NCBI GenBank assembly: GCA_965204375.1
Contig: OZ241986.1
Coordinates: forward strand, 2,464,001 to 2,528,000
Direction of reading: 5' to 3'
DNA length: 64,000 nt
Source of the DNA: Candidatus Latescibacterota bacterium
GTDB taxonomy: Bacteria; Latescibacterota; UBA2968
Both the position numbers and the translations under genes were made by a program. The notes beneath the pieces were generated by a model. The model made no database searches. It had not been told where the DNA came from and saw only the letters and a list, made by a program, of their open reading frames with translations. This document shows positions 5,962 through 30,831 of the stretch, in pieces; position 1 is the first letter of the stretch; every line of letters starts with the position of its first letter.

Positions 5962-7485
5962 TCACTCCGGCGGCCAAACCGTCTCTTTCGTATATGCCTC
6001 TTTCAAATCGCGCCAATACCGCCTGCCTTTGTGAACCAGATTTGTCGGCGCGAACCGCTTGTTCAAACCTCTCTCGTGACTCGACCGCCCCGTATCGGTT
6101 CGATATTGCAACGTGAACCGCATCAATTGTGCGAGCAAATCAAAACGCACATCTGCATATTCTGGATCGGCCCAAACATTCGCGATCTCACCCGGATCAT
6201 TGCGGTGATCGTACAACTCTCCCTCATCCACACTCTCGTAAAACACCAGCCGAAAATCGCGCGTGCGAATCGCCGACACCTTGCCACCGGGATTGCCCCA
6301 ATCCCACTCGCAAAACGCCGCGTCTTTGCCATCTGCTGTACCATTCACAACGGGAATCAAATCGCGCCCATCGCGCCCATCGGGAATGGGAATATCGCAA
6401 AGACGACACAGCGTGGGATACCAATCGACCGATTCCACAATCGCATCACACCTCGCGCCCGATGGACCACCCGGATAGCGCAAGGCAAAAGGAATGCGGT
6501 GAATCGAATCGTAAATCCCAAAATTCTTGTGAAACAACCCGTGATCACCCGCAAAATCCCCGTGATCCGCGCAATACAAAACAATCGTATTCTCCAACTC
6601 CCCCACCTCGTCCAGATAATCCAGCACCCGCCCAATCTCGGAATCAATCGCCGTAATCAGCGCGTAATAACTCGCCAAACAACGCTTCAAGCGATCGGGA
6701 TTGGGATCGGCCAGTGGATACCCGCCCCCATCGGCCAACCGCTCTTGCATAAACTCGGGCTTGCCGGCAAAGCGACGCTCAAAATAATCAATCGCACTAT
6801 CGGGCAACACCATCTCATCGGGATTGTACATATCAAAATGCTCTGCCGCAGGCGCGATCGGTGCATGGGGCCTTTGAAAACTCATGTGCAAAAAAAACGG
6901 CCGACCTTCATCTCGCTCCTTCAAAAACGCCAGCGACTCATTACCCGTATAATGCTCAATCGAATGCTGATAGGGCAGTTTGGCCGGCGCACTGCCATCC
7001 ATCGTATATTCCTGCCCGGGTCTGGCCGAGCCTTCTTCGTAAAAATCCGACAACCCCAGATCTTCCAAGTACTTAAAATAGTGCGTCTCGGTTGGATCCA
7101 AATGCGTCGCATCGCACAAATCCGTATATCGGATGCGCTCAAAACCATCTTCATCCCAACGCCGAACCATGTGCGCCTTGCCAATCACAGCCGTTTGATA
7201 CCCGTATCTCCGAAACTGACACGCCAGCGTATTGGGATTCGCCTCGGAAATCTCCGAATGATCATTGCCAAACATCCGATGCGTATGACAATACTGCCCG
7301 GTCATAAAACAGATCCGCGACGGCGAACAAATCGGATTATTGCAAAAAGCATGTGTAAACACCACCCCCTCATCCGCAATGCGATCCATATTCGGGGTTC
7401 TGACATTTGGATGCCCGGCAAATCCCGCACAATTGGCATTGTGCTGATCCGACATCAGCCACAACACATTGGGTCTTCGCGCCAT
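5962..7485 (-). CDS. Cys-type sulfatase
   Basis: SDQH, CSPSR, GKAH, ADHGD; AGGAG RBS. Confidence 0.9.
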   Translation of the reverse strand: MARRPNVLWLMSDQHNANCAGFAGHPNVRTPNMDRIADEGVVFTHAFCNNPICSPSRICFMTGQYCHTHRMFGNDHSEISEANPNTLACQFRRYGYQTAVIGKAHMVRRWDEDGFERIRYTDLCDATHLDPTETHYFKYLEDLGLSDFYEEGSARPGQEYTMDGSAPAKLPYQHSIEHYTGNESLAFLKERDEGRPFFLHMSFQRPHAPIAPAAEHFDMYNPDEMVLPDSAIDYFERRFAGKPEFMQERLADGGGYPLADPNPDRLKRCLASYYALITAIDSEIGRVLDYLDEVGELENTIVLYCADHGDFAGDHGLFHKNFGIYDSIHRIPFALRYPGGPSGARCDAIVESVDWYPTLCRLCDIPIPDGRDGRDLIPVVNGTADGKDAAFCEWDWGNPGGKVSAIRTRDFRLVFYESVDEGELYDHRNDPGEIANVWADPEYADVRFDLLAQLMRFTLQYRTDTGRSSHERGLNKRFAPTNLVHKGRRYWRDLKEAYTKETVWPPE

Positions 7486-16923: not shown

Positions 16924-17538
16924 TTAAATGTCTATCGCATCACTATTTTCGGGTATAATCGCCCAGAGCGATTGCCCGACCAGACGGTGATACAGGCTCC
17001 AAAAGCACGCAAGCGGCAAGCCCACCACATTGTAGAAGCAACCAGATATAGATTGAATAAATGCAGATGCACGCCCCTGCGCGCCATAAGCGCCAGCTTT
17101 GTCCATAGAATCCCCAGTGGCGACATAGCGTGCAATATCCTCCGATGAGAGCACGCGCATGGTGACGTGAGTAGTAGCAACCTCTGTAAGGGTCTGTCCG
17201 GTTTCCGTATCTGTAAGGGCCAGTCCGGTATAGACCTGATGGGTTTTTCCCGAAAGTTGCGCCAGCATGTCTTCGGCGTGTTTGGCATCATTCGGTTTCT
17301 CGAAAATCGCATTTTCCAATACCACAACTGTATCGGCTCCCAAAACGAGCGCGTGGTCAAAACGATGGACAACCGCCTTTGTTTTTCGCTGTGCGATTTC
17401 CCGCACATGTTCGGCAGGTGGCAAGATGGTATCCAGCGCCTCATTGGCATTGCTCGGCGCGATTTCAAACGGAATATCCAACAAGCGCAATAAACTCGCA
17501 CGCCTGGGTGAGGCAGAAGCGAGAATCAGTTTCTTCAT
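16924..17538 (-). CDS. maf: Maf nucleoside-triphosphate pyrophosphatase
   Basis: [29 protein letters not shown]. Confidence 0.95.
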
Positions 17539-17978
17539 ATCTCTGAGTCAATCATCAATGTAACGGGGCCAGTGTTGTGAATTTCAACCTGCATGTACGC
17601 GCCAAAAACGCCGGTTTCAGTGTGAATGCCAAAGGTGCAGAGGCACTGGACAAATTGCTCGTACATGGATTTGGCAATATCTGGTGGAGCAGCCCGATTA
17701 AAACTCGGACGGCGGCCTTTGCGGGTATCGGCGTGCAGGGTAAATTGAGAAACCACCAGCGCCTGCCCACCCGTATCGAGCAGAGATCTGTTCATTTTGC
17801 CCTGATCGTCTTCAAAAATTCTCAAATTTACACATTTCTCGGCAACATATTCCATATCTGAAAGACCATCGGTATCGCTAATACCCAGCAAAATCAAAAG
17901 ACCGCGATCAATTTGACCAACGACTTGTTCTTCAACGCGAACCGTTGCCCTGCATACCCGCTGAATCAATGCCCGCAC
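17535..17978 (-). CDS. dtd: D-aminoacyl-tRNA deacylase
   Basis: [25 protein letters not shown]; GTG start after GGAGG. Confidence 0.95.
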
Positions 17979-18011
17979 GCTACCCTCCAATGCTAAAAAC
18001 GCCTATACCAT

Positions 18012-18150
18012 TTATAACCTATTTGTGGCATGTGTGCAAGGCGAAAGATATAAGAGACGCGGCAAAACAGGTTGGCACCATCCCGGCGCAATCGCAAATA
18101 ACAGGAACAAAATGAGCCAAACTACTTGTATTTTATTGAAGATATTCGTA
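18012..18150 (-). pseudogene. Relic of an internally deleted lptD copy (5' end joined to lptD downstream flank)
   Basis: 18059-18150 matches 30741-30832 at 81/92 nt (start ATG changed to ACG); 18012-18051 matches 28441-28480 at 30/40 nt (manual ungapped alignments). Confidence 0.85.
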
Positions 18151-18288: not shown

Positions 18289-19485
18289 ATGAATCGAGGA
18301 AAAAGCTTACTCACGGCTGGTGCCATCCTTCTCATATCCTTGATTGTTGCCTACCTTATGGTCTGGCTTAAGCCCGAGCCGGAAATCCGATCGCTTACTT
18401 CCCGGGCACCTTTCGCAATCACGGCCCCCGCAGTGGTCGGCACCGGTGCAATTCCCGTGTACGGTGCAGGGACAGTTCGACCTGTTGCAAAGATAGATGT
18501 CGCTGCCGAAATCAATGGCAAGGTTATTTGGGTAGATCCGGCCTTTCAGAGTGGCGGACGAGTCCGAAAAGGGCAGGTTCTCTTCCGCATTGATGACGCC
18601 GACTACCGCAACAGAGTACAGCAAGCGCGTGCCAACGTGGCCGCGCAGCATGTCGCACTCCTCCGGGCGCGTGAAGAAGCCCAGATCGCACGCGCTGAGT
18701 ACGCGCAATTCAGACGTGACCAAACGGACATAGCCGAAGCCAATCCCCTTGCGCTGTGGGAGCCTCAGATCGAGGCAGCTCGAGCCGCGGTGGCCAGAGA
18801 TAGTGCGGTGCTCGCCGATGCCGAGTTGGCCTTGGCACGCACAAAAGTCCATGCACCCTTCAGAGGCGTCGTGCAGGCAGAATCAATAGATATGGGGCAG
18901 TTCGTGGTGGCTGGGCAGAGTGTAGGACGACTTTACGCGACCGATGCAGTAGAGGTGGTGGTTCCCCTCTCCGATGCCAACGCGGTTCTCATCCCAGGCC
19001 TCTGGGAGCTAAAAGCGGGCGACGGAGATAGGCAGGTCAGGGCCCGTGTCATCGCTGAATACGGCGATGGAAGCTACGCCTGGGAGGGCTATGTAGATCG
19101 AGCAGAAGCATCCCTGGACGAACAGACGCGGACTATTGACGTCATCGTGCGCGTTCCGAATCCCTTTGCGAGCGGCACCCGAGTTGAGGCGGCAGGCGTG
19201 GATCCTGGCCCGCCCCTTCTCGTGGGCAAGTTTGTGGAAGTGCAAATTGAGGGAATCACCCCAGATCGGTACTTCATCCTGCGGCGGTCAGCACTCAGGC
19301 CGGGCAACGAGATTTGGGCAGTACGCGATGACACGCGATTGACCATCGTCCCGGTGCGCGTCCTTCAGCGTTCCGATGATCAGGTGTTCGTAACCGGCAC
19401 TCTGAAAGCCGAGCAGGCGGTCGTCATAGGCGGGATTCAAGTCGCAACCGAAGGCATGGCTGTGCGGATCGGAGGTGATCCATGA
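18289..19485 (+). CDS. RND efflux periplasmic adaptor (MFP)
   Basis: N-terminal TM, AEINGKV, lipoyl/hairpin region, TKVHAPFRG, LDEQTRT. Confidence 0.9.
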   Translation: MNRGKSLLTAGAILLISLIVAYLMVWLKPEPEIRSLTSRAPFAITAPAVVGTGAIPVYGAGTVRPVAKIDVAAEINGKVIWVDPAFQSGGRVRKGQVLFRIDDADYRNRVQQARANVAAQHVALLRAREEAQIARAEYAQFRRDQTDIAEANPLALWEPQIEAARAAVARDSAVLADAELALARTKVHAPFRGVVQAESIDMGQFVVAGQSVGRLYATDAVEVVVPLSDANAVLIPGLWELKAGDGDRQVRARVIAEYGDGSYAWEGYVDRAEASLDEQTRTIDVIVRVPNPFASGTRVEAAGVDPGPPLLVGKFVEVQIEGITPDRYFILRRSALRPGNEIWAVRDDTRLTIVPVRVLQRSDDQVFVTGTLKAEQAVVIGGIQVATEGMAVRIGGDP

Positions 19486-22400
19486 ACCGAGAAGATGGTT
19501 CCGCACGGGAACGCCCCGGACCGATAGCTTACATGGCGAGCAACAGTGTAGCCGCCAATCTATTGATGTGGGCGATCATCGCCGCCGGGCTGGTGTCGCT
19601 GACCGGTCTCGATCGGGAAGCCTGGCCCACCACCCCTTTCTACCATATCGAAGTCTCCATGGCCTATCCCGGTGCCACACCGGAGGAGATCGAGGAGTCG
19701 ATCGTCGTCAAGATCGAGGATCAGGTCAGCGGGCTCGATGACGTGAAGGCGGTCAAGTCCGTTGCGGCCCCGGGCATGGCCTCCGTGCGGGTTCAAATGG
19801 ATTTCGATACGGACATGGCTCGGGCCTTGGACGATATCGAGTCTGCTGTCAATCGCATACAGTCCTTCCCGGCCGGTGCCGAACGTCCACGGTTCCGGGA
19901 GATGAACAACCGCCTGAGCATGATGCGGCTCATCGTCCACGGCGCCGTCTCCGAGCGCGCGCTGAAGGAACTGGCGTACCAGATCGAGGACGACCTCACG
20001 ACGCTCCCCTCCGTGTCCCAAGTCGAGGTCAGCGGTATTCGGAAATACGAGATATCTATCGAAGTACCGCTTCATCGCCTGAGAGCACTTGGACTCACCC
20101 TCACCGACATCGCCAACACGATTCGTCGCAGTTCCCTGGAACTGTCCGCTGGCAGCATCGATACCCGGGAATCCCAGGTGAGGGTCCGCACCCTCGGACA
20201 GAACTACGACCAGCAGGATTTCGAGGAAATCGTCCTTCTCAGCGGTCGTGACGGCACGGTCCTGCGCCTTGGAGATATCGCCGAGGTCCGCGACGGCTTT
20301 CAGGAAACCGACCTGATTGTGCGGCACCAGAACCAGCCCGCTGTATTCGTCGAGGTCTATCGCGCCGATGGCGAGCAAGTAATGGATGTCGCCACCACCG
20401 TCCGAGAACACCTGGCTAACGAAGTGATCCCGTCCCTGCCCGACGGAGTGGGCATCACCATGTGGAATGACGAATCCCAAGTCTATGAGGAACGCGCCGA
20501 TCTTCTCCTCAAGAACGGTATCCTGGGCCTGTTGCTGGTGCTGATCTCCCTCAGCTTGTTTCTCGAAATCCGGCTCGCGCTTTGGGTCGCCGTGGGCCTC
20601 GCCGTTTCGGGTATCGGTGCCCTCGCCATCATGATGGCATTCGACGTGGCGATCAACACCATCAGCCTTTTCTCCTTTGTCCTCGCCATAGGAATCATCG
20701 TCGACGATGCCATCGTCGTGGCCGAGCACATCCACTACGAACGCAAGCGGGGAACACCCGGAGTCACGGCCGCGATCCGCGGCGTACGGCGGATCAAAGT
20801 GCCGTTGACCTTCGCAGTTCTGACGTCGGTGGTGGCCTTCGTCCCGCTGCTGTTCATCCCCGGCGGCGTAGGTGAGGTGTGGCGGGCCCTGCCGATCATC
20901 ATGATCGCCATGCTGCTGGTTTCCCTGGTCGAATCGCTGCTGGTGCTGCCCAACCACCTGTCCCACCTGCACGGCCCGGAGTGGGTGCCGGCCAATGCCT
21001 TCGACCGGTTCTTCGCACGGCTCCAGGGGCGCGTGGACGAGCTGCTGAACAGATTCGTGCAAGGGCCTCTGGACCGGGCCCTGCGGTTCGCGACGGATCA
21101 GCCCGGGGTGACGATGGCGGGGGCCGCGGGAATGCTCGTGTTGAGCATCTCCCTGTTGCCCGCGGGGATCGTTCCTACCACGCTGGCCGCTGATGTGGAG
21201 GGGGATATCGCGACGGTCGTCCTGGAGATGCCCGATGGGACGACCGCTTTGAGGACGTACGAAGTGGCGCAGGAACTGGAGGCCGCAGGCCACCGGGTCA
21301 TCGAACGACTCTCGCGCAACCGGCCCGCAGACGCGCCACGGCTGCTGACCGGCGTAACAGTGACCGTCGGACAGGGCTCGAGACTCGAGGGCGGGCTCAA
21401 TCCGGAGCCTACCCTCAATCCGGAAGCCAATATCGCCACCATCGAGTTCAAACTCCTGAGCGCCCAACAGAGAGAGATCTCCACCGGAGAGGTCGTGCAG
21501 GCATGGCGCGAGGAGGTGGGTGTGCTGCCCTATGTGCGCGGTATCACCTTCAGCGGCGCGGTCTTCGACCTGGGCAACCCGGTGGAGGCCGTGTTGTCGC
21601 ATCCTGACCCGAAGCTGCTCGCCCGGATTGCAGACTCTGTGGTCGATGGACTCCGAGGAGTGGGAGGCGTCTACGACGTACGCTCGGATCACGCTCCAGG
21701 CATCCCGGAAATTCAGCTCGAGTTGCAGCCGGAAGCGCGAACCCTTGATCTCACACTTGACGACCTGGCCGGGCAGGCACGCGCCGCGTTCTTCGGCGCT
21801 GAGGCGGTCCGGGTGCAGCGCGGCCGGGAAGAGGTCCGGGTCTATGTGCGCCTGCCCGCCGATGAGCGGAATTCCATTACCGATGTCGAAGGTTATCACA
21901 TCCGCACCCCGGGCGGGGCCGAAGTCCCGGTCATGAGTGTGGCTTCGCTGAACCCAGGCGTGTCGCCGCCGGCCATCCGGCGCAAGGACGGCCAGCGCGT
22001 CGTCACGGTCACGGCGGACGTGGACGCTGCGGTGATTTCCGGTGACGAAGCCAACGACATCCTGGCCAATTCGATCCTCGCGGACCTGACCGCCTTGCAC
22101 CCTGGCCTGACATACAGCTTCGGAGGGGAACAACAACAGCAACTCGAATCCCTGGATGCGCTGTACCGCGGGTTCGCGGTCGCCCTGATCATGATTTTCG
22201 CGCTGCTTGCCATCCCTCTCCGCTCATATACCAAACCGTTCATTATTATGGCCGTCATCCCTTTCGGGTTCATCGGGGTGATCCTGGGTCACTGGGTCCT
22301 CGGAGTAGCCCTGAGCGCGGTATCCTTCATGGGCATCTTCGGCCTGAGCGGGGTGGTTGTGAACGATTCCCTGGTCATGATCGATTTCATCGATCAGAAA

Positions 22401-22676
22401 CTCAGGGATGGCGCCCCGGTGCGAACTGCGATCATAGAGGGTGCCAAAGGGCGTTTCCGTCCGATCATGCTCACTTCTGTGACGACTTTCCTCGGCTTCA
22501 CGCCCCTCATTCTGGAACGCGCCATTCAGGCCCAGTTCCTGATCCCCTTTGCCGCATCGCTCGGCTGCGGCATTCTCTTTGTCACGGCCATACTTATGAT
22601 GGTCGTTCCCGCTCTTTCCACCATCCATCTGCGTCTGACTGCGTCGCGGGGCCGTTCCGGCGCCGGTACCGCGTAA
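19482..22676 (+). CDS. RND permease (AcrB/AcrD/AcrF family)
   Basis: 1064 aa; YPGATPEEIE, IGIIVDDAIVV, GVVVNDS, RFRPIMLTS. Confidence 0.95.
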   Translation: MNREDGSARERPGPIAYMASNSVAANLLMWAIIAAGLVSLTGLDREAWPTTPFYHIEVSMAYPGATPEEIEESIVVKIEDQVSGLDDVKAVKSVAAPGMASVRVQMDFDTDMARALDDIESAVNRIQSFPAGAERPRFREMNNRLSMMRLIVHGAVSERALKELAYQIEDDLTTLPSVSQVEVSGIRKYEISIEVPLHRLRALGLTLTDIANTIRRSSLELSAGSIDTRESQVRVRTLGQNYDQQDFEEIVLLSGRDGTVLRLGDIAEVRDGFQETDLIVRHQNQPAVFVEVYRADGEQVMDVATTVREHLANEVIPSLPDGVGITMWNDESQVYEERADLLLKNGILGLLLVLISLSLFLEIRLALWVAVGLAVSGIGALAIMMAFDVAINTISLFSFVLAIGIIVDDAIVVAEHIHYERKRGTPGVTAAIRGVRRIKVPLTFAVLTSVVAFVPLLFIPGGVGEVWRALPIIMIAMLLVSLVESLLVLPNHLSHLHGPEWVPANAFDRFFARLQGRVDELLNRFVQGPLDRALRFATDQPGVTMAGAAGMLVLSISLLPAGIVPTTLAADVEGDIATVVLEMPDGTTALRTYEVAQELEAAGHRVIERLSRNRPADAPRLLTGVTVTVGQGSRLEGGLNPEPTLNPEANIATIEFKLLSAQQREISTGEVVQAWREEVGVLPYVRGITFSGAVFDLGNPVEAVLSHPDPKLLARIADSVVDGLRGVGGVYDVRSDHAPGIPEIQLELQPEARTLDLTLDDLAGQARAAFFGAEAVRVQRGREEVRVYVRLPADERNSITDVEGYHIRTPGGAEVPVMSVASLNPGVSPPAIRRKDGQRVVTVTADVDAAVISGDEANDILANSILADLTALHPGLTYSFGGEQQQQLESLDALYRGFAVALIMIFALLAIPLRSYTKPFIIMAVIPFGFIGVILGHWVLGVALSAVSFMGIFGLSGVVVNDSLVMIDFIDQKLRDGAPVRTAIIEGAKGRFRPIMLTSVTTFLGFTPLILERAIQAQFLIPFAASLGCGILFVTAILMMVVPALSTIHLRLTASRGRSGAGTA

Positions 22677-22707
22677 TGCACTTCATGATGCAGGGAGGCG
22701 AAAACCG

Positions 22708-24735
22708 ATGGCTGATACTACCGAGGGTTTGACGACCCAACCGCTGACTTTGACTCAAGAACTCATCCTGATGCTCCTCAACGAGGAGACTGGCTACTTT
22801 CACCAGGTACCCGGCTGGCATTTGAACTGCGCCGTGGTCGGTGCGGTGCTCGCGGAGCTTTCACTCAGATCTCGCATCGACACGGACATGGAATCCCTGT
22901 TCCTTGTGGACGAGTCGGAAACCGGCAACCCTGCCCTGGACCCCATTCTGAAAGAAATTGCAGCCGAATCTGGTCAACGGGACGCCCAGTACTGGATTGA
23001 ACGGCTCGCTCCCCGTGCGGAGTCGATCATTGATTCGGTTCTGGATCGCCTGGTTGACCTGAAAATCCTGGAATACCACGACGGCGAATTCTGGACGCTG
23101 GCTCCTACCGCTTGGCGTGGGGAACTGTACGGCAAGTCGGAAGAGGGCACTGCAGGCCAATTCATAAGAACGCGGATCAGCAGGGTCATCTTCACCGACG
23201 AGATTCCCGATCCGAGAGATGTCATCATCATCTGCCTCATCAATACCTGCGACGTCTTTCGTTTCATATTCCAGCTGGATGAGGAGGCCGAGAAGCGCAT
23301 CGAGTTCATCTGCAAGATGGACCTGATCGGCCGCTCCCTGGCCGCTGCGGTCTCTCAGAACCTCGCCGGCCCGGCCCTTCGACGTCCTGCCCTTACCAGG
23401 AAGATTCCGACGGTTTCGCTGCCCAAGCTGCTGCTGAACCCGCACATTCGAGACGGCAACCTGAACGCGCTCTTCGGGAACCTTGCGGAGGAGTACGGTC
23501 CGGTGTTCCAGATCCGCCCTCCCTTCTCGTCGCCCATGATCTTCCTGGCCGGACTCGAGACGAATCGCTGGGTGCACAAACGCGGGCGCATGTACCTGAG
23601 AACGAGGGACTACTTCAGCGACTTCGAGAAGGTCTACGGTGCGTCCGGCGTCCTGCCCGCCCTGGACGGTGCCGATCACTTCCGGCTTCGCAAGTCCTTG
23701 TCGCCGGCCTATTCTGCCGGGAGGCTGGGAGGGCAGCTAGATCAGCTCTACAATCAGGGGCGCAAGTACATGGCGAGCTTGACGGTTGGGGACTCCTACC
23801 GCGCCACGTCCATGTGCCGGGAGATGGTGAACGCCCAGCTCTCGCCACTGTTCATCAGCGTCGATACCCAGGACCTCATGGACGACCTGATGAAGTACAA
23901 GGAACGGGCCCTCAGCGTGCACATCGCCAAGCTCCTGCCCGGATTCACACTGAACACCCCGGGCATGAGACGCCGGGCGAAAGCCCTGGATACACTGATG
24001 CAGCGGGTCCAGGACATCCATACCCCTGCCCAACGGGCGGACAGCCCGCGGGACCTGGTGGACGATTACCTCAGTCTGCACGCGAGCGACCCGCAGTTTC
24101 TCCCGGAGTCCAACCTACTGTTCGCCTTTTCCGCGGCCTTGATTGCCAGCGTGTACCTCGGCGATACGTTCAGCCTCATAGTCTACGCCATGGCGTCGCA
24201 GCCCGACCTCTACGCCAGAATCCAAGCCGAAGCAGATGCCTTGTTCGCCAAGGGCGACCCTGAAAGAGAGGACTTCACCCCCGCCAACATCGACGTGACG
24301 CACCGCTTCCTCATGGAGTGCCTGCGCATGTACCCGATCGTCTCCATGTCCATTCGGAACGTGATGAATACGTGCGTGGTCGAGGACTACGAGTTGCCCG
24401 TGGGGGAACGGGTCCACATTGCCATGACCGCCACGCATTACATGAGCGAGGTCTTTCCCGACCCCTACAAGTTCGACATTGACCGCTACCTGCCGCCGCG
24501 CCATGAGCATCGCAGCCCCGGGTACGCCCCGTACGGGCTGGGTACGCACAAGTGTCTCGGCACCCGGTGGATGGAGTTGCACCTGGCGGCCAACTTGCTG
24601 ATGCTGGCGCACTATTTCAAGATTGAGGTGTCGCCGGCGAAGTACAAGCTCCGTTTCAGTCCATTTCCGTCACTGAAACCGAGCAAGAAGCTGAAGTTCC
24701 GCATCACCGAGCAGAGACGGGAGTTGTTCGCCTGA
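22708..24735 (+). CDS. GOLPH3/GPP34-domain::cytochrome P450 fusion
   Basis: aa ~10-215: LTLTQELILMLL, GAVLAELSLRSRI, TGNPALD, YWIERL, RLVDLKIL (GPP34-like); C-terminal part has ECLR (ExxR), FDIDRY and the heme motif YGLGTHKCLG. Confidence 0.85.
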   Translation: MADTTEGLTTQPLTLTQELILMLLNEETGYFHQVPGWHLNCAVVGAVLAELSLRSRIDTDMESLFLVDESETGNPALDPILKEIAAESGQRDAQYWIERLAPRAESIIDSVLDRLVDLKILEYHDGEFWTLAPTAWRGELYGKSEEGTAGQFIRTRISRVIFTDEIPDPRDVIIICLINTCDVFRFIFQLDEEAEKRIEFICKMDLIGRSLAAAVSQNLAGPALRRPALTRKIPTVSLPKLLLNPHIRDGNLNALFGNLAEEYGPVFQIRPPFSSPMIFLAGLETNRWVHKRGRMYLRTRDYFSDFEKVYGASGVLPALDGADHFRLRKSLSPAYSAGRLGGQLDQLYNQGRKYMASLTVGDSYRATSMCREMVNAQLSPLFISVDTQDLMDDLMKYKERALSVHIAKLLPGFTLNTPGMRRRAKALDTLMQRVQDIHTPAQRADSPRDLVDDYLSLHASDPQFLPESNLLFAFSAALIASVYLGDTFSLIVYAMASQPDLYARIQAEADALFAKGDPEREDFTPANIDVTHRFLMECLRMYPIVSMSIRNVMNTCVVEDYELPVGERVHIAMTATHYMSEVFPDPYKFDIDRYLPPRHEHRSPGYAPYGLGTHKCLGTRWMELHLAANLLMLAHYFKIEVSPAKYKLRFSPFPSLKPSKKLKFRITEQRRELFA

Positions 24736-24773
24736 CGACATGGCTCCTTGTGGGGCCAGGAGGGAACCACCAA

Positions 24774-25805
24774 ATGCGACTGGGCAAACTATCGAGAGAG
24801 CTGAGAGACGCGTACCGGGGATCGCGCGTCGCACGTCGGGTGCAGCACTTTGACGGCTGGCTGCGACGGGCGGCGGAGTCCGGTGGCGCGGGCGGGTACG
24901 ATCACACTGAAACTGTGAAAGACTATTACGACCTTTGCAGCGGGTTCATGGTGTGGGGCTGGGGCGAGTCCCTGCACTTCGCGCCCCTCACGCCTCATGA
25001 GAGCCTGGAGGAATCCAAGGTCCGGCATCAGCGGGTGATGATCTCCAAGCTGAAGTTGCAACAGGGTATGACGGTGGTCGACGTTGGTTGTGGAGTCGGC
25101 GGCCCCATGCGCCGCGTCGTCCGTGAGGCTGGTGTCAGGGTTGTAGGAATCAACATCAATGAGATCCAGTTGGAACAGGCGAAAAGGTTGAACGCCGAGG
25201 CAGGGCTCGACCACATGGTCGATTTCGAGACGTGCAGCTTCATGGACATGGACACCATCGAGGACGACACCTTCGACCGGGGTTATGCCATAGAGTCAAC
25301 GTGTCATGCGCCGGACAAGCAACGCTCCTTCGCGGAGATATTCCGCGTACTGAAACCCGGTGCCCTGTTCTGGGGGCAGGAAATGTGTCTGACGGGCCTG
25401 TTCAATCCGAAGGACTACCGGCACCGGGCCATCAAGCAGGATCTCATGCGCGGCATTGCGCTGAACGACATCGCCACCTTCGGGGAAGTGAATCACGCGC
25501 TCGAAGCCGCGGGATTCCACGTCATGGAAGGGATGGACCGGGACGTCCAGAAAGGACCCTCCACACCCTGGTATCACCCCATGAAGAGTCGCCACGGGAC
25601 CTTGGGCAACGCCTTGCGCAGGCTTCCCTGGGGCCGCAAAGCGGTCATCGCAGGATCGAAGCTGGCTGAAGTACTGCGGCTGTTTCCGAAGGGCTCCGCG
25701 GAAGTCGTCCGACTTCTGGACCGGACCGCGGAGGCTTATATCGCAGGCGGCAAGGCGGGTATCTTCACGCCGCTGTACTGTTTCTTAGCTCGTAAGCCTC
25801 TTTAG
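24774..25805 (+). CDS. Sterol 24-C-methyltransferase (Erg6/SMT) homolog
   Basis: WGWGESLHFAP (Region I), DVGCGVGGPMR (SAM binding), YAIESTCHAP, LKPG, and SMT C-terminal GGKAGIFTPLYCFLARKP; GGAGGG RBS before ATG 24774. Confidence 0.88.
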   Translation: MRLGKLSRELRDAYRGSRVARRVQHFDGWLRRAAESGGAGGYDHTETVKDYYDLCSGFMVWGWGESLHFAPLTPHESLEESKVRHQRVMISKLKLQQGMTVVDVGCGVGGPMRRVVREAGVRVVGININEIQLEQAKRLNAEAGLDHMVDFETCSFMDMDTIEDDTFDRGYAIESTCHAPDKQRSFAEIFRVLKPGALFWGQEMCLTGLFNPKDYRHRAIKQDLMRGIALNDIATFGEVNHALEAAGFHVMEGMDRDVQKGPSTPWYHPMKSRHGTLGNALRRLPWGRKAVIAGSKLAEVLRLFPKGSAEVVRLLDRTAEAYIAGGKAGIFTPLYCFLARKPL

Positions 25806-25857
25806 GTCCGGGTGATGGTTTCTGACGCGCCGCTGTCCCCGGTTGCCGTTTGCGAGG

Positions 25858-27222
25858 TCAGCCCCGTGCTCTCTTGAACCGGCAGCCGTACATGATGCGC
25901 CCGTAGTGGTTGAACGAACGCTTTGCTACGGGATCGTCGAAGTGGTAATCCGTTCCGATCTGTCTTGCGGCGGCGAGCCCGGTGATGAGGCAGGTTTCCT
26001 GACTGTTGATCAGCGTGTGAGCGCCGCAGTACCACGTTCGTCTCTTTCCCTGAATGAATCGGAACAAGTTGACGAGCAATGCAACCTGACGCACGTCATG
26101 GACAATGTGTTGAAACCGCTGCTTCTTGATGATCTTTCGTTCTTCAATAGGGCTTACCGCGTTGTAAGTTACCAGACAAGGCTTGTCAGACCGATTAGCC
26201 CAGGGCTGCTGGTTGTGCATGATGTACGTGATTTCATAATTGTCCGGCCTCGCACCGTACAGTTCGATATGATTGCTCCGCGTTGCCAGCGGCTTCACTT
26301 CGTTGTGGGGAAGGACTGAGGAGTCCCAGTGGGCGACCGCAAGCTGGTGGGTGTCGCGGTCGTAACGTATCGACGAGAGAATATAGCGTTCAAGCCTGGT
26401 GGGTCTGTCGAGAATCTTAAGCGTCTGGTCCGCATTGCATGCAAAAACCACCTCGTCAAACGTCTCCCGCACACCGTCTTCATCCTCGACCACGACACAG
26501 GATGCCCGCCGATACACCTTTGATACAGGCCGGTTGAGATAGATATTGTCCTGAAAGTTGGCCGACAGGTTCTCGTAGATGCGCCGTGTTCCCTGGTCCC
26601 ACGTCCACATGGATGTAGCTGTTTCGATGTCGAAGAATTCGAGATACCTCGAAAAGAGTGCTGCAGGCAGATCGAATACGTTCGTTGCCAGAACGAAATT
26701 GAGGAACATGGGTTTCAGAATCTTGTACCTGAAGTCTCCGGAAAATCTTCCCAGATTCAGGACAGTCCCCATGCTGATGTAATTGAACGGGTTGAGAGCG
26801 TTCAGCAATCTGGACTGGGAACGGCTCAGCCAACCAAACCAATGCAGATGCCTCAAGACTCGTTGGAACTTCGCAATCTCGGACTGTAACTGCTCCTTGA
26901 TATCGGAATCGAAATCGTGAGCGTAAACACCGTCCCTATACTTCACGCTGTAGCTGAATCTGGTGTCGATCAGCTTGATGCCGAACTTCTCCATTAACAG
27001 CAGGATGTGGTTATAGACCGATGGGATACAAGCGGTGACGGAGATGTCGAAGGGAATCGAACTGCCGTCATCTTGAGGCATATCGACAGTAACAGCATTC
27101 CCGCCAATCTGTCCCTGGGCCTCGAACAGCCGAAAATCAAATCGGTCCGGGTGATGATGGAGTGCCCATGCGGCCCCCAGCCCTGAAACGCCTCCACCAA
27201 CAATGGCAATTCGCCGTGGCAT
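25858..27222 (-). CDS. FAD-dependent oxidoreductase, COG2907 type
   Basis: IAIVGGGVSGLGAAW, FEAQGQIGGNAVTV, FDEVVFAC, IQGKRRTWYCGA. Confidence 0.75.
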   Translation of the reverse strand: MPRRIAIVGGGVSGLGAAWALHHHPDRFDFRLFEAQGQIGGNAVTVDMPQDDGSSIPFDISVTACIPSVYNHILLLMEKFGIKLIDTRFSYSVKYRDGVYAHDFDSDIKEQLQSEIAKFQRVLRHLHWFGWLSRSQSRLLNALNPFNYISMGTVLNLGRFSGDFRYKILKPMFLNFVLATNVFDLPAALFSRYLEFFDIETATSMWTWDQGTRRIYENLSANFQDNIYLNRPVSKVYRRASCVVVEDEDGVRETFDEVVFACNADQTLKILDRPTRLERYILSSIRYDRDTHQLAVAHWDSSVLPHNEVKPLATRSNHIELYGARPDNYEITYIMHNQQPWANRSDKPCLVTYNAVSPIEERKIIKKQRFQHIVHDVRQVALLVNLFRFIQGKRRTWYCGAHTLINSQETCLITGLAAARQIGTDYHFDDPVAKRSFNHYGRIMYGCRFKRARG

Positions 27223-27270
27223 TATCTCTGCCTCCCTGTTGCTTTGGTGTTTGGTGGTGCTTCGAAAATC

Positions 27271-28356
27271 TCATGTTTCGTTTTCTTGCGAAATTGGCTG
27301 TTCAGGATAGAACTGCCGACAATATCGACGGTATTTCCCTATGGGGCCGTCAGCCCGACACAGCCTGGGAGGAGACCGATACTGCTTCCTTTCCCAGATC
27401 ACCACATCCTGCCGGACATCCCGTTTCTGTTGTGACATCAAAAAGCGATTCATCAGCCTGTGGCGCAGCTTCATCGGCAGAAACCCCAGACCTGAGATGA
27501 ATCGCCGGGGCTTGCGGATCTCCCGCAGTTGGCTGACCAGTACAAGATCGATGAGGGTGCCGTCAATGGGCGTTGCAAGTACCCACAATCTCGCATTCAT
27601 ATCGATAGTCTTCTCGTGAATTTCGACGAAGGAGTAGCCCAGTCCATAGACGTGGGTGATGGCCGAGGTTTCGTACACGAGATCCTTTACACCCAGGATC
27701 TTGCGAACGCGTTTGAAGTCGAAGCAACTCTTCAAATAGGCACCATCTACCGTTACCGAACCGATCGGATTCACATTGTCGTAACCATGCACGTAGGCCA
27801 GATGTCCCAGATCCACGGAGTTCTCTGTCGTTTCCTGGGGATGGCCTCGGAATCGGAGGGTGTGGGATCGCAATTCGGACCACTCCGCGTCCTCCGTCGG
27901 TTTAGCTGGCAACTCCCACTGCGGCGGCCGACCGCCACTCCCAAACCAGGCGAAAACCATGCCGAGGATCTCTCTGATCTCATATACTTTCAGTCTCGCG
28001 GCTTTGGGAGCCGGGGCGTTCGGAGTCGCAACGCATTGGCCGGTCGTATCGTACTCAAACCCGTGAAACGGACAGACGAGGCGACCGTTGCATACCTGGC
28101 CGCCGACCTCCGGCCCCAGGTGCGAGCCCAGGTGCGGACATACCGCGTCGGCCACACAGACACGGCCTGCTTCGTCGCACCAGACGACGATTTCTTCTCC
28201 CAGCCACGTCTTCTCGATCAGTTTCTCTCGCAGAATGGATTCGCGACTTGCGACGAAATACCACCCATCGGGGAACGGCGGTAGCGCACCCGCGTCATTC
28301 ATGGCCGGTTGATCAGTACTTCTGGCTCGTAAATCCGCAGATTCTGTCAAAGACAT
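27271..28356 (-). CDS. Rieske non-heme iron oxygenase, cholesterol 7-desaturase (Neverland/DAF-36)/KshA-like
   Basis: FPDGWY, CPHLG...CPFHG, ENSVDLGHLAYVH, DVVIWERK...DGPIGKYRRYCRQFY. Confidence 0.8.
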   Translation of the reverse strand: MSLTESADLRARSTDQPAMNDAGALPPFPDGWYFVASRESILREKLIEKTWLGEEIVVWCDEAGRVCVADAVCPHLGSHLGPEVGGQVCNGRLVCPFHGFEYDTTGQCVATPNAPAPKAARLKVYEIREILGMVFAWFGSGGRPPQWELPAKPTEDAEWSELRSHTLRFRGHPQETTENSVDLGHLAYVHGYDNVNPIGSVTVDGAYLKSCFDFKRVRKILGVKDLVYETSAITHVYGLGYSFVEIHEKTIDMNARLWVLATPIDGTLIDLVLVSQLREIRKPRRFISGLGFLPMKLRHRLMNRFLMSQQKRDVRQDVVIWERKQYRSPPRLCRADGPIGKYRRYCRQFYPEQPISQENET

Positions 28357-28479
28357 AAAGATCTCATCCTCAGGAGTTTCCCAAAGGCACCCTGAACAGC
28401 GCCGATGTTATGAGATATCCCCATGCAAAATCACCGAAATCTATAAGCCATTTACGGCAGGTGGACAAGGTGAAAGATT

Positions 28480-30831
28480 TTATATTCCAAATCCGCCGCG
28501 TCGGTGCTCAAACTTTATTTGCGGGATGTCCTTAATATTGATCTTAAAAAAGAACCCCTTATTAAAACCCGCGGGATACCACGAAAATCGCGCTTCCCAA
28601 CAGTGCAGGTCGCGGTAAAGCGATAGGCTTTGCGCCGAGATTTTGGCATCGGGTAGAACATCGATATTGATCGAATAGTCAATTCTTATAAATTGGCGAG
28701 GATTGATACCAACATCTGCTTTGATCCAAGATGTTTTGCTCGTTGTATTGCCGAACCGCCGCATCGCAATATAGTGCGAAAGATTGAATCGCCACGGCTG
28801 GCTGGCACCGCCGAAATCGCTGTACAGATCGCGTTCAAAGCCAAAATCTGCGCCATATCCCCCCCTGTATCCACCACCATACCCATCGTCATATCCGCCG
28901 TCATATCCATCAGCAATAGCGGACTGTATAACCCTATTGCCTCGTTCACCTTGACCACCAGAAAAACGGAAATTGGAGGTAATAGTCAGGTTCTGCATGC
29001 GCGGATGCAAAAGCGACCGCTGGCCTGTACTGTCATAGAGCGTATGGGTCATCGCAATGCGGACATCCACGCGGCGATCGGGTTTGAGAGACGCGCTGGT
29101 GCGAAGTGGACGCCATTTTTGTCTCGGCGCGTTAAAATCGTACCCCATTGACAGATTGAGAGTCGCCAGAGTAAAGCGACGCACATCGTCGTCGCGCTGA
29201 GTTTTGAGTTCAAAAGTATTGCCAATATTAAAATTTATGCTGCGTCTGGCATCGTCCCATCTGCGATTGCCTCCAAACCCCATTGTTCCTTGAAAGATGC
29301 TTCCCGATTGGTTGTAATTGAAATTGAGCCGGGGCTGAAAGCGATGCCGAATGCCGCGCAACCGACCAATTTGCGGTTGGAATATGCCGTATAATGTCGT
29401 ACCCGAAGACAGTGCCGCGTTGTAAGACGTGCGTCGGGTTGTAGAATCGGTATCGCTATATATAAATTCTTCGCCAAAATTAAAGCCCGGCGTGAGATCG
29501 AGCCAGCCCAGGGGGCGGTGTTGGCTGTTGACGGTGACGCGATTTTGAAGAGAGACGCGCTCCGTATTGGGCGCAGGATCGGGATTGCGCGCAAAGTTAT
29601 TCGACAAGGTGCTCGAAAAACCGTAATAAAAGGCGCGATACCACGGTCCTGTAGCAGATGTCATTTCATTGTCGCCAAATATGCGGCGTCTATTTTGCCG
29701 AAAGCTGAGGCGGGGAAAGCCCTGAAAGCTATTATTTTTTGTCCTCAGGTCGCGGTAATACGTCAGACTACCATCAATGCTACGCCCGGATTCTGTCCAG
29801 CGTTTATCAAAAGAAAAACTGGACCTCAGTTGCCGATTGAGATAGCGATAGAGATTATTGCTATTGCGTCGGTCAAAGTAGGTACTGGTCGAAAACTGCC
29901 CGCTCCCCCTGATATTGGTCGTGGCGTTGATGCGTTGCTGGTGTTGCAAATTAAAGCGCCAATTGTGAGCCGTCGCATCGCCAGAGGTATCGTGGTCATA
30001 TCCGATATCCATTGAGCCGCTAAACCGATTGCGCCTGGCATAGGCAAATCGCGATTCGAGCAAAAATCCACCGCGCTCGCGCAAAGTGCTCTTAACCGTG
30101 GCATCCCAGTATTCACTCGGCGCAAAATAATATCCCAAATTGTGAACAAAAATGCCATCTCGGCTGTTACTACCCACGCCTGGCGTGAGCAAACCCGATT
30201 GCCGCCCACGCTTGACTGGAAAAACGAAAAAGGGAACCCAGAAAACGGGAATCGGGCCAATGCGAAAGGTGACAGACCGCCCAATCGCTTTGTCGTCTTG
30301 CAAAATACGCACATTTTTGCACAAAAAATCGTAGTGTGCATGGTCGCGATCACAGGTACTCAAAGAGAGATTCAGTGCATTCAGTGCTTTTAGACCGTCG
30401 AGTGCAATACGGGCACCGCGATAGTGTTTGCGCTGATGTGACGCGCGTCCATCTCGCACGCTACCGCGTTCTGTATCGAGGTCATAGACCATGTACTCAC
30501 CCGATATTTTCTCGCTACCGCGGGTAAATTGGGGTGGTCCCACGGTTTTTGCCCCGGTGGAATCGGGCAATGCGCGTGCTGTGACGTGCCGGGTGTTTTG
30601 ATCGTACGTGATATGACCGGCTTTGAGTTGCAGATCGCGATAGCGCAAGGTGGCATTGCCGGCCAATTCCACGCGCCTGGCCTGCACATGATAAACGACC
30701 TCGTCGGCATCAAACACTATAGAATCGCCAGCGGCTTTTTGCGGCAAAACGGGTTGGCACCACCCCGGCGCAATCGCAAATAACAGGAACAAAACGGGCC
30801 ACACGGCTTGTGTTTTATTGTAGATATACAT
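28480..30831 (-). CDS. lptD: LptD-like outer-membrane assembly protein
   Basis: Signal peptide, OstA-like N-domain, STCD..H, RQSGLLTP, GYYF, C-terminal RDLHCWE. Confidence 0.75.
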   Translation of the reverse strand: MYIYNKTQAVWPVLFLLFAIAPGWCQPVLPQKAAGDSIVFDADEVVYHVQARRVELAGNATLRYRDLQLKAGHITYDQNTRHVTARALPDSTGAKTVGPPQFTRGSEKISGEYMVYDLDTERGSVRDGRASHQRKHYRGARIALDGLKALNALNLSLSTCDRDHAHYDFLCKNVRILQDDKAIGRSVTFRIGPIPVFWVPFFVFPVKRGRQSGLLTPGVGSNSRDGIFVHNLGYYFAPSEYWDATVKSTLRERGGFLLESRFAYARRNRFSGSMDIGYDHDTSGDATAHNWRFNLQHQQRINATTNIRGSGQFSTSTYFDRRNSNNLYRYLNRQLRSSFSFDKRWTESGRSIDGSLTYYRDLRTKNNSFQGFPRLSFRQNRRRIFGDNEMTSATGPWYRAFYYGFSSTLSNNFARNPDPAPNTERVSLQNRVTVNSQHRPLGWLDLTPGFNFGEEFIYSDTDSTTRRTSYNAALSSGTTLYGIFQPQIGRLRGIRHRFQPRLNFNYNQSGSIFQGTMGFGGNRRWDDARRSINFNIGNTFELKTQRDDDVRRFTLATLNLSMGYDFNAPRQKWRPLRTSASLKPDRRVDVRIAMTHTLYDSTGQRSLLHPRMQNLTITSNFRFSGGQGERGNRVIQSAIADGYDGGYDDGYGGGYRGGYGADFGFERDLYSDFGGASQPWRFNLSHYIAMRRFGNTTSKTSWIKADVGINPRQFIRIDYSINIDVLPDAKISAQSLSLYRDLHCWEARFSWYPAGFNKGFFFKINIKDIPQIKFEHRRGGFGI

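Follow-up and report, generated by a model that had tools for sequence, protein, structure and literature searches.

A stretch of 64 kb of contig OZ241986.1 from the genome of Candidatus Latescibacterota bacterium (label G000), here called the window, contains a genomic island of about 10 kb with six genes, inserted between dtd and lptD. The island encodes the permease and the periplasmic adaptor of an efflux pump, a fusion of a GPP34 domain with a cytochrome P450, a methyltransferase that resembles sterol methyltransferases (SMTs), a flavoenzyme and a Rieske oxygenase. We propose, with a probability of roughly 0.55, that the island, which recurs in sponge-associated bacteria of many phyla, is a mobile module that tailors and exports a sterol acquired from elsewhere, and we class it as a sterol-type tailoring cassette that is uncoupled from sterol synthesis, coupled to efflux and mobile. 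An earlier reading of the DNA letters alone, here called the sequence-only reading, had described a self-contained cassette that remodels and exports pre-made sterols. The co-occurrence of the genes, the lack of a cyclase and an epoxidase, the presence of the pump in the operon and the sterol genes in some of the related loci all speak for that description. However, its canonical C-24 SMT and its self-containment did not hold, and squalene is still a possible substrate.

All six genes are intact open reading frames (ORFs) at the positions predicted earlier, and matches in Pfam and NCBIfam back every assignment. The first gene on the plus strand (18289-19485) encodes an RND periplasmic adaptor, or membrane fusion protein (MFP), of 398 amino acids (HlyD_3, 3.9e-12; HlyD_D23), which scores 139.3 bits on the RND_mfp model TIGR01730 (cut-off 94.9). 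It is followed by the gene for an AcrB-type (HAE1-like) RND permease of 1064 amino acids (19482-22676, plus strand), in which ACR_tran covers residues 21-1045 (1.6e-157, 526.5 bits). The third gene (22708-24735, plus strand) encodes the fusion protein of 675 amino acids, with the GPP34 domain at residues 15-216 (4.2e-30) and the P450 domain from about residue 230 (1.1e-34). The fourth (24750-25805, plus strand) encodes an SMT-like C-methyltransferase dependent on S-adenosylmethionine (SAM), here assigned to the FMVW clade, with a Sterol_MT_C domain (9.2e-16, 58.2 bits, cut-off 21.7) and additional matches to Methyltransf_11, Methyltransf_25 and CMAS. Its probable true start is at 24774, which gives a protein of 343 amino acids, and most of the recorded homologues have 343-344. 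The minus strand encodes an amine-oxidase-fold oxidoreductase that binds flavin adenine dinucleotide (FAD) (25858-27222, 454 amino acids; Amino_oxidase, 2.1e-19; NAD_binding_8) and a KshA/Neverland-type Rieske non-haem iron oxygenase (27271-28356, 361 amino acids; Rieske, 1.9e-17; KshA_C, 9.2e-25). As expected from the sequence-only reading, the genes form two convergent units, with stops at 25805 on the plus strand and 25858 on the minus strand. The spacing on the plus strand is operon-like, with an overlap of 4 nt between the MFP and RND genes, 31 nt from the RND gene to the P450 gene and 14 nt from there to the methyltransferase gene, and the pump is encoded in the same operon as enzymes. 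An open frame of 860 amino acids in antisense over the RND gene (19560-22142, minus strand) is most likely a by-product of high GC content, and not a gene.

The genomic island is recognized by an empty site in relatives, flanking direct repeats and a deviant composition, the last in part for GC content. The gene dtd for the D-Tyr-tRNA deacylase (17535-17990, minus strand; Tyr_Deacylase, 3.4e-56) is located to the left of the island, in a flank where the gene order includes maf and rodZ, and lptD (28480-30831, minus strand; LptD_2, 2.1e-63) is located to the right. The site was compared by searching for the LptD and Maf proteins in 30 relatives, and lptD was 92-96% identical in 15 of 18 genomes of the same genus. 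Six of the same-genus genomes (G041, G046, G052, G055, G056 and G057) and seven genomes of the sister family have a gap of about 520-780 bp between maf and lptD, which has room for dtd alone, while the distance is 8.3-11 kb in seven genomes with an occupied site (G000, G042, G044, G048, G049, G050 and G058). In G047, the methyltransferase gene adjoins lptD on a short contig. That the island interrupts lptD-dtd is thus borne out by contiguous maf-dtd-lptD genes in 13 relatives and an insert in seven genomes including G000; the island entered a site that had been empty and is not a remnant.

An alignment of the island borders to the empty site in G046 identified an imperfect, att-like direct repeat of 41 nt. 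The left copy (18009-18049) is placed in the upstream region of dtd, the right copy (28438-28478) touches the stop codon of lptD, and the two are identical at 31 of 41 positions. One copy is present in the empty site (L086:1637) and two copies are present in L001, L002, L005 and L084, and no match of at least 30/41 to the repeat was obtained in 20 shuffled windows. In G056, which belongs to the same genus, the complete island with the MFP, RND, P450, methyltransferase and Rieske genes is located at another chromosomal place (L085:8622-17450), with a copy of the right-type repeat beside the Rieske gene (L085:8622, 36/41), and the dtd-lptD site of this genome is empty. In G044, also of the same genus, the dtd-lptD site contains a variant island (L084:2982-10611) with the MFP, RND and Rieske genes and a GPP34::P450 fusion of 74% identity, but no methyltransferase, which is therefore dispensable to the unit. 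The flavoprotein gene is missing from the closest relatives L001, L002 and L005, and the methyltransferase is patchily distributed in the genus, with presence in 7 of 18 relatives. No integrase or transposase was found among the six island genes with Pfam.

The same genes occur together in many other bacteria. Relatives of the methyltransferase were collected from 549 stretches, with one genome per species, and the counts of loci refer to the best 80 of these (74-96% identical) or to the 63 of the best 80 with complete flanks of 10 kb on both sides. The 80 loci belong to metagenome-assembled genomes with the labels Latescibacterota, Gemmatimonadota, Chloroflexota/Dehalococcoidia, Nitrospirota, Nitrospinota, Acidobacteriota, Actinomycetota, Verrucomicrobiota, Binatota, Thermodesulfobacteriota, Rhodothermales and Gammaproteobacteria, and the module proteins are 60-99% identical across them. 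Among the 63 loci with full flanks, the GPP34::P450 fusion is present in 61 (49 at an identity of at least 60%), the Rieske protein in 54, the AcrB-type RND permease in 34, the flavoprotein in 28 and the MFP in 22. The enzyme trio of methyltransferase, GPP34::P450 and KshA-like Rieske oxygenase is found together in 53 of the 63 loci and all six genes in 12, while the methyltransferase stands alone in a single locus (L065). In most loci where both were called, the window-type methyltransferase gene is located 5-50 nt from the fusion gene. Over all 80 loci, RND copies of 69-97% identity are present in 39 and the flavoprotein in 37. The co-occurrence of the genes as a unit in other genomes, on which the sequence-only reading depended, is thus supported by this check of cluster conservation. 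In the gene maps, the trio is almost always accompanied by a transporter of the RND superfamily. A cluster of nine members (P0059, 477 amino acids) combines SMT domains with KshA_C and may represent a methyltransferase-oxygenase fusion or an artefact of gene calling.

The gene maps suggest four layouts, as judged from crude ORF maps in which the calling of ORFs failed for some GC-rich loci. In one, OEP, MFP and RND genes precede the enzymes; an OEP/NodT-type gene is found before the MFP gene in 15 related loci. Two layouts have a transporter with MMPL and sterol-sensing domains, which usually takes the place of the AcrB-type pump in loci that lack the latter. In the fourth layout, mostly seen in Nitrospirales, the trio adjoins genes for a fusion of squalene epoxidase and oxidosqualene cyclase (SE::OSC), CYP51, ERG24, an SdmA-like Rieske protein, FA_hydroxylase and a second, canonical SMT. 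At least one sterol-synthesis gene (SE::OSC, CYP51, ERG24, SdmA or FA_hydroxylase) is present in 11 of the 80 loci. The plain P450 of these loci is CYP51, with a match of 2.7e-102 to chain 6mcw, and the SdmA-like Rieske protein scores 407.5 bits on NF052579, for which the cut-off is 600. It is mainly because the trio adjoins sterol-synthesis genes in related loci that we call the substrate a sterol. Two recurrent proteins of the loci have no counterpart in the window: a tetratricopeptide repeat (TPR) protein of 255 amino acids in 16 of the 80 loci (for example, L040:2291-3058) and an outer-membrane beta-barrel protein in 11 (for example, L033:8006-8920). The TPR protein could not be identified as BstC, with no match to a solved chain at E <= 0.01 (best 0.029).

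Pairwise comparisons of the window with loci from other phyla gave dN/dS values of 0.03-0.41, mostly 0.1-0.3. For the RND and methyltransferase genes, dS is about 0.5 in comparisons with loci from Gemmatimonadota and Acidobacteriota, and the nucleotide identity is 84-85%. The low dS across phyla in combination with the low dN/dS therefore fits recent transfer under purifying selection, and the phyla are intermixed on very short branches in the methyltransferase tree. The two transcription units have partly separate histories, because dS differs between plus- and minus-strand genes within single pairs; in the comparison with L004, for example, the methyltransferase gene has a dS of 0.19, while the flavoprotein and Rieske genes have values of 1.24 and 0.78. 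While the island had been described as a GC-richer block, this is true of the RND, P450 and methyltransferase genes (19-26 kb, GC 0.58-0.66) but not of the FAD and Rieske genes, which at 0.51-0.54 are close to their surroundings (about 0.50). The difference in GC content between 25858-28356 (about 0.52) and 19482-25805 (about 0.60), together with the unlike dS values, suggests a mosaic island composed of two modules that were transferred separately. Four RNA libraries, each from a different study, contain assembled contigs that match most of the island at a likeness of at least 85%. This is weak evidence of expression because DNA may have been carried over, and gaps in the cover do not speak for silence. 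One such contig of 292 nt spans the RND/P450 junction with two differences, and another links the methyltransferase directly to the Rieske gene and thus represents the form without the flavoprotein. DNA runs labelled as sponge metagenome contain about 0.3 of the sampled island words.

The sequence-only reading had identified the methyltransferase as an Erg6/SMT and had named a position outside the SMT clade as one way to refute its interpretation. The Sterol_MT_C domain is present, yet the protein belongs to a sister clade outside the canonical SMTs. In a FastTree phylogeny of 139 rows, which is rooted at its midpoint and has SH-like support values only, the window clade comprises 29 rows on a stem of 0.62, with a support of 100, and is the sister of the remaining 110 rows. 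Among the latter are named fungal Erg6/SMT proteins, the cycloartenol C-24 methyltransferase of rice and algal sequences, along with the additional SMT copies found in cyclase-bearing loci. SAM-binding Region II is intact (VVDVGCGVGGP; DxGCGxGGP), and its columns are invariant in both clades. In contrast, the sterol-binding Region I reads FMVWGWGESLHF instead of the canonical FYE[YF]GWGxSFHF. Of 40 columns with a conservation of at least 85% among 77 canonical rows, 32 are kept in the window clade (71 rows), including all SAM-binding columns, and eight differ. The preprint text that was available to us from doi 10.64898/2025.12.19.695621 lists 25 residues as conserved in every SMT that methylates desmosterol or 24-methylenecholesterol, including 84GWGxxFHF91 and T78, and considers that deviating SMT proteins are perhaps inactive or need other substrates.

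A homologue search retrieved close relatives only, of 75-97% identity and with no functional name. In a search of 1.84 billion cluster representatives, the closest full-length matches beyond the cluster of the enzyme itself had identities of 55% and 50%, followed by matches at about 41%. The C-24 methylation of a sterol is not to be assumed for this enzyme because of its placement in a sister clade and its rebuilt Region I. The methyltransferase is, as judged from its conservation, under selection and probably active, and its substrate or regiochemistry probably differs from that of Erg6.

The genome of G000, a single contig of 6.34 Mb that is scored as 96% complete, was subjected to six-frame profile searches. 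No match to SQHop_cyclase (PF13243, PF13249), squalene epoxidase (SE, PF08491) or ERG4_ERG24 (PF01222) was obtained in the whole genome, while ERG4_ERG24 was detected by the same search in two cyclase-bearing genomes that served as positive controls. The sequence-only reading had reported no oxidosqualene cyclase or squalene epoxidase in the window, and the scan extends this statement to the entire genome. Since G000 lacks a cyclase, squalene epoxidase and ERG24, any sterol substrate must therefore be acquired pre-made. The genome contains one Sterol_MT_C gene, one KshA_C gene and two P450 genes, both of which are GPP34 fusions. Of 40 further genomes with the island, including many single chromosomes, only 9 gave a strong cyclase match (E < 1e-100), and none of these nine is labelled Latescibacterota or Longimicrobiales. 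None of the six island genes is of the KshB, KstD or Hsa type according to Pfam and NCBIfam, a statement that applies to the island, as no genome-wide search for kstD or hsa was made.

The best surviving alternative, which we regard as possible but unlikely, is that the island works on squalene made by the bacterium itself or on some other isoprenoid, acyclic or non-sterol: the terminal isopropylidene double bond would be methylated, the chain would be functionalised by the oxygenases and the flavoenzyme, and the product would be exported. The genes hpnC, hpnD and hpnE are present in G000 above the NCBIfam cut-offs (L092:4652-7814, about 3.8987-3.9018 Mb), and the bacterium should therefore make squalene, for which its genome holds no cyclase. 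A gene of the squalene-synthase family (SQS_PSY) is present in 40/40 island-bearing genomes, and for 10/10 single-copy genes that were classified the best match is the squalene synthase model TIGR01559, with scores of 98-129 bits that do not reach the cut-off. Botryococcus has SMT-like enzymes that methylate squalene, and the rebuilt Region I hints at a substrate outside the usual delta24 sterols. However, HpnE is above the cut-off in 29 of 31 relatives, irrespective of the island, and the methyltransferase is present in 16 of the 31; squalene synthesis is thus characteristic of the lineage and does not vary together with the island. The hpn genes are also about 1.4 Mb away from it. Furthermore, the trio is located beside a cyclase, CYP51, ERG24 and SdmA in related loci, sterol-sensing-domain transporters accompany it, and the nearest solved relative of the Rieske protein, KshA, acts on the steroid nucleus. 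Beside the hpn genes (L092:8080-9989) there are two proteins whose only NCBIfam matches are to effector models of the leucine-rich-repeat type or with ankyrin repeats, all below the cut-off. They may be eukaryotic-like repeat proteins, a kind reported to be enriched in sponge symbionts.

The Rieske protein contains intact motifs for the iron-sulfur cluster (CPH...CPFH) and for the iron site (DLGHLAYVH; DxxHxxxxH), and it is the only KshA_C protein in G000. KshA is its nearest solved structure (3e-22), in a phmmer alignment that covers residues 22-190 only. An identity with SdmA was rejected, with 36.5 bits on NF052579 against a cut-off of 600, and there was no other NCBIfam equivalog match than this one below the cut-off. 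Two atlas searches returned nothing beyond automatic names, and the clusters nearest to the Rieske protein are named “cholesterol 7-desaturase” in this way, which is taken as a lead only. For the flavoprotein, the nearest solved structures are the amine oxidase LkcE (3e-24) and chain 2b9w (4e-12), which we take to be a fatty-acid double-bond isomerase and which is labelled only as “putative aminooxidase” in the structure record. The flavoprotein is not HpnE, to which it has no match at E <= 1e-5, and the true hpnE is located elsewhere in the genome.

The solved structures nearest to the RND permease are AcrB, MexB and MdtB-type pumps (E 1e-59 to 3e-68). While the permease and the adaptor of a tripartite RND system are encoded in the island, there is no gene for an outer-membrane factor. 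A second alternative is that the pump serves in defence by expelling membrane-active steroids or terpenoids of the host, which the enzymes would detoxify. Neither the host nor the membranes of the bacterium itself would then receive a product. The defence explanation differs from the sterol-tailoring reading in purpose only, as the chemistry is shared. A generalist permease of the AcrB/MexB/MdtB type with its adaptor, the OEP gene in 15 related loci, and an island that is accessory, patchy in the genus and variable in gene content would all fit such a role. However, a SAM-dependent C-methylation is odd as a means of detoxification, and in the cyclase-bearing genomes the same enzymes are part of clusters for sterol synthesis, in which they use a product of the cell itself as substrate. 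We consider the defence explanation distinctly unlikely.

In the fusion protein, the translation shows an intact ExxR motif (ECLR), I-helix (LGDTF) and haem cysteine loop (YGLGTHKCLG) of the P450. The AlphaFold2 model of the fusion protein, with a pLDDT of 79 and a pTM of 0.75, shows the usual fold of a P450 at a TM score of about 0.8, normalized by the target, and a Foldseek search with this model returned generic P450 neighbours only, with no clue to the substrate. The P450 is distantly similar to taxadiene hydroxylase, CYP51 and CYP120 (1e-15 to 5e-19). It is not a CYP51 itself, since the best CYP51 match is 1.1e-17 (residues 410-647), compared to 2.7e-102 for the plain P450 of the sterol loci. 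It is in favour of the sterol-tailoring reading that KshA and, at a distance, CYP51, as the nearest solved relatives, have steroids or lipids as substrates. A phmmer search with the GPP34 domain alone gave no match among solved structures, while a profile built from 17 such domains of bacteria gave a match to human GOLPH3 (8e-12). G000 has two GPP34::P450 genes and one short GPP34 gene. The second fusion (659 amino acids, 35% identical) is located outside the window (L090:6565-11033, about 5.307-5.312 Mb), head-to-tail with an Acyl_transf_3 acyltransferase and a GT1 (EryCIII-like) glycosyltransferase and near a leucine-rich-repeat protein of 1147 amino acids. The acyltransferase and glycosyltransferase neighbours are not conserved in L093 and L094, two relatives for which the downstream flank is available.

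For the GPP34 domain, the available text of PMC11706023 reports 656 proteins that combine GPP34 with a P450 and describes them as exclusive to symbionts of sponges. For GPP34 proteins, it proposes a role as secreted effectors that bind phosphatidylinositol 4-phosphate (PI4P) and act against phagosome maturation. According to this proposal, the island fusion would bind PI4P of the host and block phagosome maturation, and its neighbours would be unrelated passengers. The reported restriction of the architecture to sponge symbionts and its expression in A. aerophoba metatranscriptomes (PMC11706023, as far as accessible) are in favour of this, as is the profile match that makes the domain a true GOLPH3 homologue. 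However, the residues W81, R90, R171 and R174, which the accessible part of PMC2806290 describes as needed for PI4P binding in GOLPH3, align to P35, V44, E105 and I108 in the fusion (profile against 3kn1 and 9qpq), so that neither the tryptophan nor the three basic residues of the pocket are kept. This is based on a HMMER sequence alignment only, with high confidence at R90 and R174 and moderate confidence at W81 and R171. In addition, the N-terminus does not look like a signal peptide, as judged by eye from the translation, and a P450 needs haem and a reductase chain. Finally, the fusion gene is placed 31 nt after the pump gene and within 5-50 nt of the methyltransferase in most loci, and the neighbourhood is kept in 61 of 63. 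We therefore hold the effector explanation to be very improbable. We favour that the GPP34 domain is a membrane-docking or lipid-handling module for the oxygenase because the PI4P pocket residues are not kept and the N-terminus is unlike a signal peptide. It is hardly credible that a de novo sterol pathway was once present and that the genes are its decaying remains, with no function today, as the missing cyclase, epoxidase and ERG24 might indicate, since the open frames and catalytic motifs are intact, dN/dS is 0.03-0.41 and the island was gained at an empty site.

According to the sterol-tailoring reading, the substrate would be a sterol from the host or from sterol-making neighbours that partitions into the inner membrane. 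The GPP34 domain, without the PI4P pocket, would hold the P450 at the membrane surface, in place of the N-terminal anchor of eukaryotic P450s, and the P450 and the Rieske oxygenase would oxidise the molecule with electrons from housekeeping ferredoxins. The divergent methyltransferase may methylate a side-chain double bond, with a regiochemistry or a substrate unlike that of Erg6, and the flavoenzyme, where present, might shift, reduce or introduce a C=C bond. The pump of MFP and AcrB-type permease would then expel the product via an outer-membrane channel that is encoded elsewhere.

Several points weigh against this reading. The identity of the substrate rests on family resemblance and gene neighbourhood, and at the positions listed in the published comparison the methyltransferase carries S78, M81, V82, W83 and L89 instead of T78, Y81, E82, Y/F83 and F89, and thus lacks both the Region I signature and T78. 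The chemistry of the island is not fixed, because the methyltransferase is missing in L084 and the flavoenzyme in L001, L002 and L005. AcrB-type pumps are generalists, and protection of the cell, as opposed to delivery of a product, could be the task of this one. None of the six genes encodes a redox partner, an uptake system or an outer-membrane channel, and the earlier notion of a self-contained cassette was abandoned for lack of the first and the last of these, with an OEP gene before the MFP gene in the 15 related loci. An endogenous acyclic triterpenoid is a possible substrate because G000 has hpnC, hpnD and hpnE, and the squalene-synthase-family gene found in every one of the 40 island-bearing genomes points in the same direction.

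The components of the island resemble several known systems, for which the published sources were available in part. Bacterial SMTs of sponge symbionts have been assayed in vitro (PMC10070321). Similar to the island enzyme, the bacterial SMTs (PMC10070321; doi 10.64898/2025.12.19.695621) have methyltransferase and Sterol_MT_C domains, come from the same kind of metagenome-assembled genomes and are sometimes clustered with sdmA and sterol genes. The island methyltransferase differs in that it forms a separate clade with FMVWGWGESLHF as Region I and with L89 and S78 as opposed to 84GWGxxFHF91 and T78. The island fusion shares the architecture of an N-terminal GPP34 domain and a complete P450 with the GPP34_L proteins, but it shares its operon with a pump and an SMT-like enzyme and has not kept the PI4P pocket residues. 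In the main text of PMC11706023, the words “sterol” and “methyltransferase” never occur, and in its accessible passages flanking genes are described for short GPP34 genes of Actinobacteriota only. The clusters of steroid genes (CSGs) of Ircinia symbionts consist of ERG24, CYP51 and LSS, flanked by SMT or FDFT1, and are horizontally transferred (PMC9531527). Like the island, they are steroid-related genes of symbionts with horizontal transfer over many phyla and purifying selection. However, the island holds none of the three core genes and its genome has no cyclase, and the accessible text of PMC9531527 describes neither the pump nor the Rieske enzyme; the word “Rieske” does not occur in it and “P450” occurs once.

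KshA has the Rieske [2Fe-2S] domain, KshA_C and the iron-binding motifs in common with the island protein, but the similarity is aligned over residues 22-190 only, and the island has neither a KshB-type reductase nor a steroid-catabolism gene. BstABC of Methylococcus capsulatus (PMC10942540, seen in part) and HpnN resemble the module in that a transporter of the RND superfamily is encoded with sterol enzymes, and the MMPL/sterol-sensing-domain transporters of related loci have a weak similarity to HpnN. The pump in the window differs from these in being of the AcrB type with a membrane fusion protein, and not of the MMPL/HpnN type. Compared to a de novo bacterial sterol cluster, G000 lacks the cyclase, the epoxidase and the C-14 reductase, and both of its P450s are GPP34 fusions. 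A literature search that covered few subscription-journal papers and no supplements retrieved no paper in which the fusion is connected with the divergent methyltransferase, the KshA-like oxygenase and an RND pump, or in which their presence in cyclase-less genomes is noted. It is thus the combination that is new, while the parts have been published separately (PMC10070321, PMC11706023 and PMC9531527, as far as these texts were available). Elsewhere in the window, there are two sulfatase genes with Sulfatase and SGSH_C domains (3323-4810, plus strand; 5962-7485, minus strand), in a stretch of raised GC content (0.53-0.57) and strongly negative GC skew.

The island unites two published signatures of sponge symbiosis, the bacterial SMTs and the GPP34-P450 fusions, in one operon, and this context would give the fusion a biochemical role in place of the proposed role as a PI4P-binding effector. 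The SMT-like clade is widespread. Published criteria would dismiss it as non-functional, but it is clearly under purifying selection and therefore a good candidate for a new regiochemistry or substrate. Unusual sponge sterols serve as molecular fossils of the earliest animals, and the organism that makes them is debated. It is a speculative and rather improbable extension of our proposal that the FMVW methyltransferase, the GPP34::P450 fusion and the KshA-like oxygenase are the missing enzymology of the unconventional side chains of sponge sterols, with symbionts of many phyla modifying host-derived sterols and pumping the products back to the host. On this speculation, the reactions might include methylation away from C-24, for example at C-26, as in aplysterol and the precursors of 26-methylstigmastane, or the formation of cyclopropyl side chains, and if it were true, the “sponge biomarker” sterol record would in part stem from bacteria that modify sterols of animals. 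Many symbionts that are unable to cyclise squalene still carry a conserved and transferable set of sterol-type tailoring enzymes with an exporter, and sterol modification in the sponge holobiont may thus be a trade shared between host and bacteria, beyond de novo synthesis.

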